A program made the position numbers and the translations under genes. This document shows positions 1,362 to 2,108 of a stretch of 4,787 nucleotides of DNA, one piece after another (position 1 is the stretch's first letter; each line of letters begins with the position of its first letter). The stretch lies in IMG/VR virus record IMGVR_UViG_3300039368_000073; one strand, 5' to 3'. This DNA is from a virus (Duplodnaviria; Heunggongvirae; Uroviricota; Caudoviricetes). The notes under the pieces were generated by a model. It did no database searches, had not been told where the DNA came from, and saw only the letters and a program-made list of their open reading frames with translations.

Positions 1362-2108
1362 TTACTTCACAACCCTCATATTGCTGACATTTGGACGCCA
1401 GCTATCCCAGTTAAACGTCACCCATCGACCACCGTTCATGGTCATGCGGTCCATAATCCTCTCACCAAGAAGCGTACTCATTGCGGCATGATTCAGGTTT
1501 GTTAACATCCCGACACTGCACAGTGATGCTGTCCGGCGATCAATTATCTGGTGCAATACCACCTGCTCGTTTTTCGTCTCCCGCTGAACGCCTATTTCAT
1601 CCAGGACCAGCAAATCAACCCCGCAAAGCTCCTGTAAAAATTTTTCCCCGGATTTGCCGTTGTCGTAGCTGTCATGCAACACGCTCATGACGTCAGACAC
1701 GGTGACGATAATCACGCTGCGCCCCTTCACCATCAGCCGGTTGCCCATCGCCGCTGCAAGGTGATTTTTCCTGGTGCCGGTTTTACCGCTGAACACAAAA
1801 TTCGTGCACCCGGTCATCAGTTCGTCAGCTATGGATTTGGCCTGGCTCAGCGCGTATTTTTGCCCGTCGTTCTGCACCTGATAATTTGCAAACGAGCATT
1901 TGCTGTGCAGAGGCTGGATGCCCGAACGATTCAGGATTTTTTCCACCCGCAACTGGCGATTCTGGCGGTTAATCTCCTCGCTGCGTTTTCGTCCTTCAGC
2001 AAGTTGCCATTCCCGCCACTCCTCCACCGTCCGGTACGGTGGAACCGACCCCTGTGGTGCAAGTCTGCGAATACGTTCAAGAACCCCAACTGCCGCAATG
2101 TTTTTCAT
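1362..2108 (-). CDS. dnaC: DnaC-like replicative helicase loader (AAA+ / IstB-like ATPase), 248 aa
   Basis: The translation is collinear with E. coli DnaC as I recall it: NRSGIQPLH, CSF-NY, FSGKTGTRKNHLAAA (P-loop), DLLVLDEIGVQ (Walker B), GMLTN, LLGERIMDRM and WVTFNWDSWR. ATG at 2108..2106 has an RBS (GGGGGTGA) lying within the 3' end of the O-like gene. Confidence 0.9.
   Translation of the reverse strand: MKNIAAVGVLERIRRLAPQGSVPPYRTVEEWREWQLAEGRKRSEEINRQNRQLRVEKILNRSGIQPLHSKCSFANYQVQNDGQKYALSQAKSIADELMTGCTNFVFSGKTGTRKNHLAAAMGNRLMVKGRSVIIVTVSDVMSVLHDSYDNGKSGEKFLQELCGVDLLVLDEIGVQRETKNEQVVLHQIIDRRTASLCSVGMLTNLNHAAMSTLLGERIMDRMTMNGGRWVTFNWDSWRPNVSNMRVVK

Follow-up and report, generated by a model that had tools for sequence, protein, structure and literature searches.

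The DnaC/YdaV-like helicase loader encoded by an apparently complete prophage, which we find in at least four E. coli lineages, carries arginine instead of the glycine preceding the Walker A lysine, and is the only natural allele of its family seen to do so. The allele is real and appears to have a single origin. We infer that ATP binding is lost and that helicase loading either continues or is dispensable. The Arg allele is therefore best seen as a tolerated curiosity, i.e. neither a new system nor proof of a dying prophage.

Immunity and replication module

The window, i.e. the whole stretch of 4,787 nt analysed here, is by its gene content the part of a lambdoid prophage that governs immunity and replication: the loader gene is located directly 3' of an O-like initiator gene and follows cro- and cII-like genes, with a cI-like repressor gene in divergent orientation. 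The following features were assigned:

624..1340, (-) strand: DUF1627 (YdaW-like) gene, downstream of the loader gene; a variant specific to this prophage lineage
1362..2108, (-) strand: DnaC/YdaV-like AAA+ helicase-loader gene, 248 aa (ORF list, profile and structure-chain matches, Eco889 annotation)
1389..1508, (-) strand: sensor I MLTNLN, Arg coupler and Arg finger ERIMDR, and sensor II DSWRPN of the loader, all intact by alignment
1590..1613, (-) strand: Walker B LLVLDEIG of the loader, residues 166-173, intact by alignment to PDB 6QEL
1764..1787, (-) strand: Walker A/P-loop GKTGTRKN of the loader, residues 108-115 (coding-strand reading, 6QEL alignment)
1770..1772, (-) strand: codon 113 of the loader, AGG (Arg), with a derived + strand T at 1772, where the ancestral C gives GGG (Gly)
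1881..2108, (-) strand: N-terminal region of the loader, residues 1-76, by homology (6QEL alignment) the counterpart of E. coli DnaC's DnaB-binding domain
2115..3077, (-) strand: O-like replication initiator gene, directly upstream of the loader gene; 320 aa as annotated, with the ORF extending to a GTG at 3092
3100..3525, (-) strand: YdaT/CII-like gene, in the same rightward early operon as the loader gene (profile matches)
3522..3737, (-) strand: Cro-like regulator gene (P22_Cro), first gene of the loader's operon (profile match, Eco889 annotation)
3787..4503, (+) strand: cI-like repressor gene with HTH and S24 peptidase domains, divergent from cro (profile matches)

The O-like initiator matched HTH_36 as well as PHROG 391 (replication initiation O-like, 2.3e-115), and in the lysogen the loader operon is presumably silenced by the cI-like repressor. 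The remaining genes of the window are a small ORF and a DUF4406 gene, which is truncated. A 282-aa ORF on the + strand (1674..2522), antisense to the loader and O-like genes, was annotated in none of the fetched genomes and is most likely a chance ORF opposite coding sequence.

Both ends of the window are IS termini. Positions 1..98 represent an IS1 terminus identical to the IS1A copy in locus L002, through which the DUF4406 gene, intact in SCU-387, loses its 29 final codons, while positions 4714..4787 form the end of an IS3-family element with the annotation IS1203-like, located between the repressor gene and a ydfA-like gene. These two IS junctions were absent from every complete genome examined, and the window probably represents a contig of short reads with repeated IS copies as its limits.

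Family placement of the loader

The loader protein corresponds to RefSeq WP_001545904.1, where it is catalogued as 'ATP-binding protein'. It matched PF01695 (IstB_IS21; 2.5e-17, 63.6 bits against a cut-off of 24.1) and PHROG 50 (DnaC-like helicase loader; 5.6e-80), and passed the cut-off of the NCBIfam PRK12377 subfamily (NF009043) with 502 against 389 bits. With 294.9 bits it remained under the cut-off of 357 for the chromosomal DnaC equivalog (NF005931), and we therefore regard it as a prophage paralogue rather than the chromosomal DnaC orthologue.

The E. coli DnaC chain (PDB 6QEL/6QEM) aligned with residues 2-242 of the loader (E=3e-73), so that homology to DnaC/DnaI-type AAA+ loaders extends over the full length, including both the N-terminal helicase-binding region and the AAA+ domain. 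In DnaC, the helicase-binding domain comprises residues 1-75 (PMC8213410), and residues 1-76 of the loader are the same in the Arg allele as in the Gly allele. Among the catalytic motifs, LLVLDEIG, MLTNLN, ERIMDR and DSWRPN align to D169/E170, N203, R216/R220 and R237 of DnaC, respectively (residue roles according to PMC8213410). The Walker B acidic pair (DE), sensor I Asn, Arg finger and sensor II Arg of DnaC/DnaI loaders are thus all present, in agreement with the initial annotation, which had described the remainder of the protein as intact.

Arginine in the P-loop

On the coding strand, the region reads ttc agc ggt aaa acc ggc acc agg aaa aat cac ctt gca gcg gcg, i.e. FSGKTGTRKNHLAAA. The range first assigned to the motif, 1770..1793, corresponds to FSGKTGTR, and the whole Walker A lies at 1764..1787. 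Over the aligned P-loop the 6QEL/6QEM chain has FIFSGKPGTGKNHLAAA and the loader has FVFSGKTGTRKNHLAAA. The Walker A of E. coli DnaC is GKPGTGKN (PDB 6QEL), as against GKTGTRKN in the loader, which bears out the motif that the initial annotation had given. Likewise, coding strand and structure-based alignment agree with its claim that Arg substitutes the P-loop Gly preceding the Lys. The loader therefore deviates from the canonical Walker A, GxxGxGK[T/S/N] with Gly before Lys.

The assumption that this glycine is invariant held in two samples of the family. Among close cluster representatives (at least 73 % identity, motif readable), Gly precedes the Lys in 116 of 117, the sole exception (P0001) being the Arg allele itself with an additional T112I. 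For a more diverse set, clusters at 50 % identity were used; among their 150 best representatives the motif is covered by 133, of which 132 show Gly, the remaining one apparently being a broken sequence. Searching with a degenerate DNA pattern for GK[S/P/T/A]GT[R/S]KNHLA gave no match in 185,579 species genomes (one genome per species) and three matches in IMG/VR, each of them this Arg allele. Neither the family alignments nor the pattern search thus showed Arg to be widespread in functional phage DnaC homologues, a finding that would have spoken against a defect.

In P-loop NTPases generally, this Gly packs against the bound phosphates. Since it is effectively invariant, impaired nucleotide binding is a well-founded expectation, and in the Arg113 loader ATP binding, and hence ATPase activity, is probably lost or badly weakened.

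The Thr in place of Pro was considered as a part of the lesion and discarded, as GKTGTGKN with identical flanks occurs in 1101 complete E. coli genomes. Because the Thr codon accompanies the Gly allele in these genomes, it is an ordinary trait of the subfamily.

Eight orphan proteins (P0001 and P0003-P0009), although 99 % identical, fell into separate 90 % clusters, and carry changes in the P-loop region, i.e. G111S/D/V/C, T112I, T102K or M98K/F106V. A recurrent mutational or selective hot spot in the P-loop was considered and rejected: every orphan is changed within residues 98-112, and the Arg113 protein lies inside the main cluster. Because each orphan is altered within this very stretch, the pattern looks like an artefact of k-mer-based clustering rather than a hot spot.

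Origin and frequency of the allele

The Gly-allele loader, WP_000788950.1, shares 746 of 747 nt and 247 of 248 residues with the Arg loader, and the Arg allele appears to have arisen by one transition, GGG>AGG. When the one base was reverted to Gly, copies of the 747-nt gene with 100 % identity were obtained from no fewer than 60 complete genomes, among them EC958 and JJ1886 (both ST131 clade C references), CE10 and APEC O18. Allele frequencies were estimated by megablast with 55-nt queries, in which each 28-nt seed has to include the central base, in 5426 complete E. coli genomes. The AGG (Arg) allele was found in 81 of these and the GGG (Gly) allele, with otherwise identical flanks including the Thr codon, in 1101, i.e. 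in around 13 times more genomes. In the index of public assemblies, 6264 blocks list the exact Arg protein, and the exact Arg and Gly proteins occur in at least 1000 contigs each of a 15-billion-protein collection.

A sequencing or assembly error in the window, which the initial annotation had wished to see checked, has practically no chance of being the explanation. Nothing speaks in its favour, and it is refuted by the identical base in 81 independent complete genomes of many laboratories, in three IMG/VR contigs and in thousands of assemblies. Our search of the literature on the accession numbers of the allele and on YdaV returned no publication on the Arg113 allele.

One genome, NZ_AP022207.1 (WP7-S18-ESBL-09), harbours both the Arg allele and the exact Gly allele, at 3123492..3124238 and 2074150..2074896, making trans-complementation or gene conversion between co-resident prophages possible. 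The Eco889 and ST38 genomes examined contain a single copy of the loader gene each.

A change in the neighbouring O-like initiator, Y233D, was considered as co-adapted to Arg113. It split all sampled Arg and Gly loci, but D233 occurs in 702 genomes as against 81 with Arg, and the candidate was dropped.

The carrier prophage and its integration site

In Eco889 the Arg loader is located on a lambda-like prophage of around 48 kb between potC and potB. It comprises int, xis, a RecE-like exonuclease gene, dicB, the immunity/replication module and a nin-like region, in addition to a Q-type antiterminator gene, tRNAs, lysis, terminase, portal and capsid genes, and a lambda-like head, tail and tail-fibre set. 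Pseudogene flags are restricted to accessory genes, with none on int, xis, antiterminator, lysis, terminase, portal, capsid or tail genes. The prophage therefore appears complete from int to tail fibre.

The potC/potB site is empty in EC958. Comparison with both prophage junctions revealed a 14-bp core duplicated at each end (L001 11382..11395 and L008 19194..19207 in Eco889, against L013 in EC958), which is the signature of site-specific integration. Integration with a duplicated att core, int/xis and a full lysis, head and tail gene set are what is expected of an intact mobile prophage. PotB is not the same protein in the lysogen (WP_000799406.1, 864 nt) as at the empty site (WP_000799382.1, 858 nt), i.e. 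the phage provides a new 3' end of potB.

EC958 itself harbours the Gly allele on a different prophage, at ompW, with the same immunity/replication module. Further Gly relatives with the same downstream genes are found in ECAMP047 (Qin-like site) and B2.3 (at potC, with another immunity region), differing from the window at six and three positions, respectively. No isolated phage was closely related for the Arg or the Gly allele, protein identities in the phage collection reaching 83 % at most. IS insertions were seen in the prophage of two carriers, i.e. IS1A in RIVM_C019217 and IS4 in S1-JOR-02-A.

Spread across E. coli backgrounds

The ST131 carrier is Eco889 (PMC10597468), to which Z0117EC0055 and GN03204 are identical over 40 kb, and the ST38 carriers are S1-JOR-02-A and RIVM_C019217 (PMC10501143, PMC12632120), whose chromosomal flank is shared by CUVET16-394. 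Between ST131 and ST38, the left chromosomal flank differs by around 3.3 % (362-378 differences in 11.4 kb), the last differences being located about 150 bp from int. In contrast, the prophage shows only 2-4 differences in 23.6 kb from int to terminase. The right flank is 1-2.5 % different, and the tail-tip/fibre region is mosaic.

When all fetched loci were compared, the Arg prophage occupied potC/potB in at least four flank types, i.e. those of ST131, ST38, SCU-387 and L019. That a prophage so nearly identical lies in four flank types, with 1-3 % divergence continuing as far as the att site, speaks for transfer between hosts. Since the divergence of the flanks reaches the att site, the shared prophage cannot have come with a larger stretch of chromosome transferred by homologous recombination, and repeated integration by Int after the mutation is required instead. 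For the same reason, a clonal, vertically inherited lesion was rejected, the prophage being present in ST131, ST38 and at least two more flank types.

All Arg loci fall into two close haplotypes, one comprising the window, SCU-387, L018 and L011, and the other ST131, ST38 and the remaining Arg loci. Over positions 98..4713 the window matches SCU-387 and L018 with 100 % identity, while it differs from the Eco889 and ST38 prophages at three bases, all of them missense: 1327 (DUF1627 F5S), 2680 (O-like P138L) and 3596 (Cro G48S). The allele has also been reshuffled. Locus L012 (IMGVR_UViG_2602041644_000003, 2354..5252) has the Arg loader with the same O-like and YdaT-like genes joined to a different repressor/cro pair, which we read as the Arg allele recombined into another immunity type, and the Arg module occurs in rearranged contexts in L020 and L021. 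Taken together, these data point to a single origin of the Arg allele, followed by phage-style dissemination and recombination.

The initial annotation had proposed a prophage with decaying lytic and replication functions. Considering that the carrier is an apparently complete prophage of around 48 kb, nearly identical and site-specifically integrated at potC/potB in at least four backgrounds, this proposal finds only weak support.

The repressor change

Residues 149-152 of the repressor are encoded at 4231..4242, and Ala151 (4237..4239) occupies the position of the catalytic Ser. Where lambda cI has VEGNSMT, with the catalytic Ser149, the window repressor has VEGDAMT, and the Lys (TLKKV) is kept. 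The window repressor is therefore predicted to be unable to autocleave, and without the catalytic Ser ordinary SOS induction appears doubtful. The alternative immunity region of L012 has ESDSMS, i.e. the Ser is present. This change had been taken together with the loader change as a sign of decay, but the two are unlinked, as the same Ala also adjoins the Gly-allele loader in EC958. Since both the repressor Ala and the accessory pseudogenes are common to Gly-type prophages, neither belongs to an Arg-specific syndrome of decay.

Consequences of the arginine for helicase loading

The loader is the DnaC/YdaV-type one of a Rac/Qin-style replication module, consisting of cro, a ydaT/cII-like gene, the O-like initiator gene, the loader gene and DUF1627. 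By placing Arg before the Walker A Lys, GGG>AGG would leave the loader unable to bind or hydrolyse ATP normally, while the N-terminal DnaB-binding domain and every other AAA+ motif are retained. As the gene is part of a repressed rightward operon, the change should cost the lysogen nothing. Upon induction, DnaB could be loaded via ATP-independent ring opening by the N-terminal domain of the loader, as seen in vitro for DnaC K112R and the isolated domain, or else the phage may depend on host DnaC or a co-resident Gly-type prophage. On balance, we lean towards this broader reading, i.e. an ATPase-dead loader that is either good enough for the phage origin or dispensable and complemented (host DnaC, helper prophage). 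Its bolder form, namely that a natural DnaC-type loader works without its own ATPase, with the N-terminal domain depositing DnaB at the O-bound origin and thereby converging on lambda P, is rather doubtful and offered tentatively.

The published precedent is the Walker A mutant K112R of DnaC, which has no ATPase activity but loads DnaB onto M13 ssDNA at around the wild-type level and activates unwinding to 40-50 % (Puri et al. 2021, PMC8213410), whereas the isolated helicase-binding domain of DnaC reaches about half the wild-type level of loading (PMC8213410). A loader with altered ATP dependence, as the initial annotation had suggested as an alternative to decay, is consistent with these in vitro data. 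Nevertheless, the tolerance observed in vitro may fail to carry over in vivo, and according to work as cited in PMC8213410, the AAA+ motifs of chromosomal DnaC, including Walker A, are critical in vivo. Moreover, G>R is harsher than K>R and could misfold the domain, and the spread of the Arg prophage could have needed helper prophages.

The last point leads to a plain loss of function, which is possible, if distinctly less probable than the broader reading above. The prophage would no longer replicate alone, and a neutral or slightly deleterious Arg would have hitch-hiked on the expansion of clones (ST131 sublineage, ST38), reaching multiple backgrounds through complementation by Gly-type lambdoid prophages or through recombination between prophages. 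The invariance of the Gly argues for such a loss, as do the accessory pseudogenes, the IS insertions in several carriers together with the IS ends of the window, the Ala at the catalytic Ser position of the repressor, and the lack of closely related deposited phages (none above 84 % protein identity). Gly-type copies are also very common (1101 genomes), and one co-occurs with the Arg copy in WP7-S18-ESBL-09. That the three SNPs separating the haplotypes are all missense fits relaxed constraint, even if three sites prove nothing. However, the pseudogenes and the Ser>Ala repressor are also found in Gly-type relatives, the essential late and integration genes all look intact, and only one loader copy is present in the Eco889 and ST38 genomes examined. 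In addition, the use of the same att site in at least four backgrounds, with divergence up to the att core, requires that the phage was repeatedly excised, packaged and integrated by Int once the mutation had arisen.

It is very unlikely that Arg is functionally silent, i.e. that the P-loop of this subfamily tolerates it in a normal ATP-dependent loader. The allele persists and spreads, and the subfamily already departs from DnaC in the P-loop (Thr for Pro) and in the ssDNA-contacting residues, yet around 250 representatives all have Gly, bar the allele derivative and the broken-looking sequence, no Arg or Ser match was obtained in the 185,579 genomes, and in P-loop NTPases generally the Gly is packed against the bound phosphates. 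We give hardly any credence to an adaptive Arg, making the loader less toxic when leaky or turning it into a dominant-negative DnaB binder directed against related superinfecting phages. The circumstantial evidence for it, i.e. the frequency of the allele in two pandemic lineages, is accounted for by clonal over-sampling; besides, the early operon containing the gene is repressed, the allele arose once, with no recurrent hits, and the other P-loop variants among the orphan proteins are best explained by the clustering artefact.

Should the loader be ATPase-dead while the phage still replicates, the allele would be a natural experiment, in which a phage dispenses with an ATP switch that chromosomal DnaC reportedly requires in vivo. 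If the phage indeed loads its helicase ATP-free, this would be the in vivo counterpart of the in vitro finding that DnaC loading needs no ATP binding. If, on the other hand, the gene is simply dead, the Arg codon would still be a single-nucleotide marker of one prophage lineage (ST131 sublineage, ST38 and others). In any case, the immobility of a prophage is not proven by a 'broken' catalytic motif alone.

Comparison with known systems

The kind of system is not new, as the Arg loader is a point mutant within a well-known loader family. E. coli DnaC and the prophage loader have in common the N-terminal DnaB-binding region, Walker B, sensor I, Arg coupler and finger, sensor II and the unusual GK-N end of Walker A. 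In the P-loop, the prophage loader differs by Thr where DnaC has Pro and by Arg where DnaC has Gly. The ssDNA-contacting residues K143, F146, S177 and Y179 of DnaC (PMC8213410) are replaced by H, Y, T and N in the 6QEL alignment, and the corresponding positions in the prophage loader are 145, 148 and about 178/180. Since the two alleles differ solely at position 113, the Gly allele has the identical H, Y, T and N, and the ssDNA contacts of the prophage loader subfamily as a whole may differ from those of DnaC.

Closer relatives are YdaV of Rac and the loaders of Shigella phage POCJ13 and of Stx phages, which belong to the same subfamily and have the same gene order. They are 83 % identical to the loader over 97 % of the protein (tblastn), i.e. 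around 17 % diverged, and POCJ13/Stx/Rac-type records label them DNA replication protein or DnaC-like helicase loader. At the identity level of YdaV and POCJ13, all cluster representatives have Gly at the position of Arg113. The closest relative is WP_000788950.1, carried by the EC958 ompW prophage, ECAMP047, B2.3 and many others next to the same O-like, YdaT-like and cro genes; in contrast to the Arg allele, it is distributed over several different prophage backbones and integration sites.

Functionally, DnaC K112R and the isolated helicase-binding domain resemble the Arg113 loader in being P-loop-defective or ATPase-less forms of a DnaC-type protein, and they show that the DnaB ring can be opened and loaded onto ssDNA without ATP binding being required (PMC8213410). 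However, both are laboratory constructs of the chromosomal protein, with the Lys mutated in K112R, whereas Arg113 is natural, phage-borne and affects the Gly; furthermore, both K112R and the isolated domain are reported to be non-functional in vivo for chromosome replication.

A different precedent is set by phage lambda. Its P protein is an ATP-independent phage helicase loader that is not an AAA+ protein. If the Arg loader still loads DnaB, it would be a purely functional analogue of lambda P, i.e. a helicase loader acting independently of ATP downstream of an O-type initiator.
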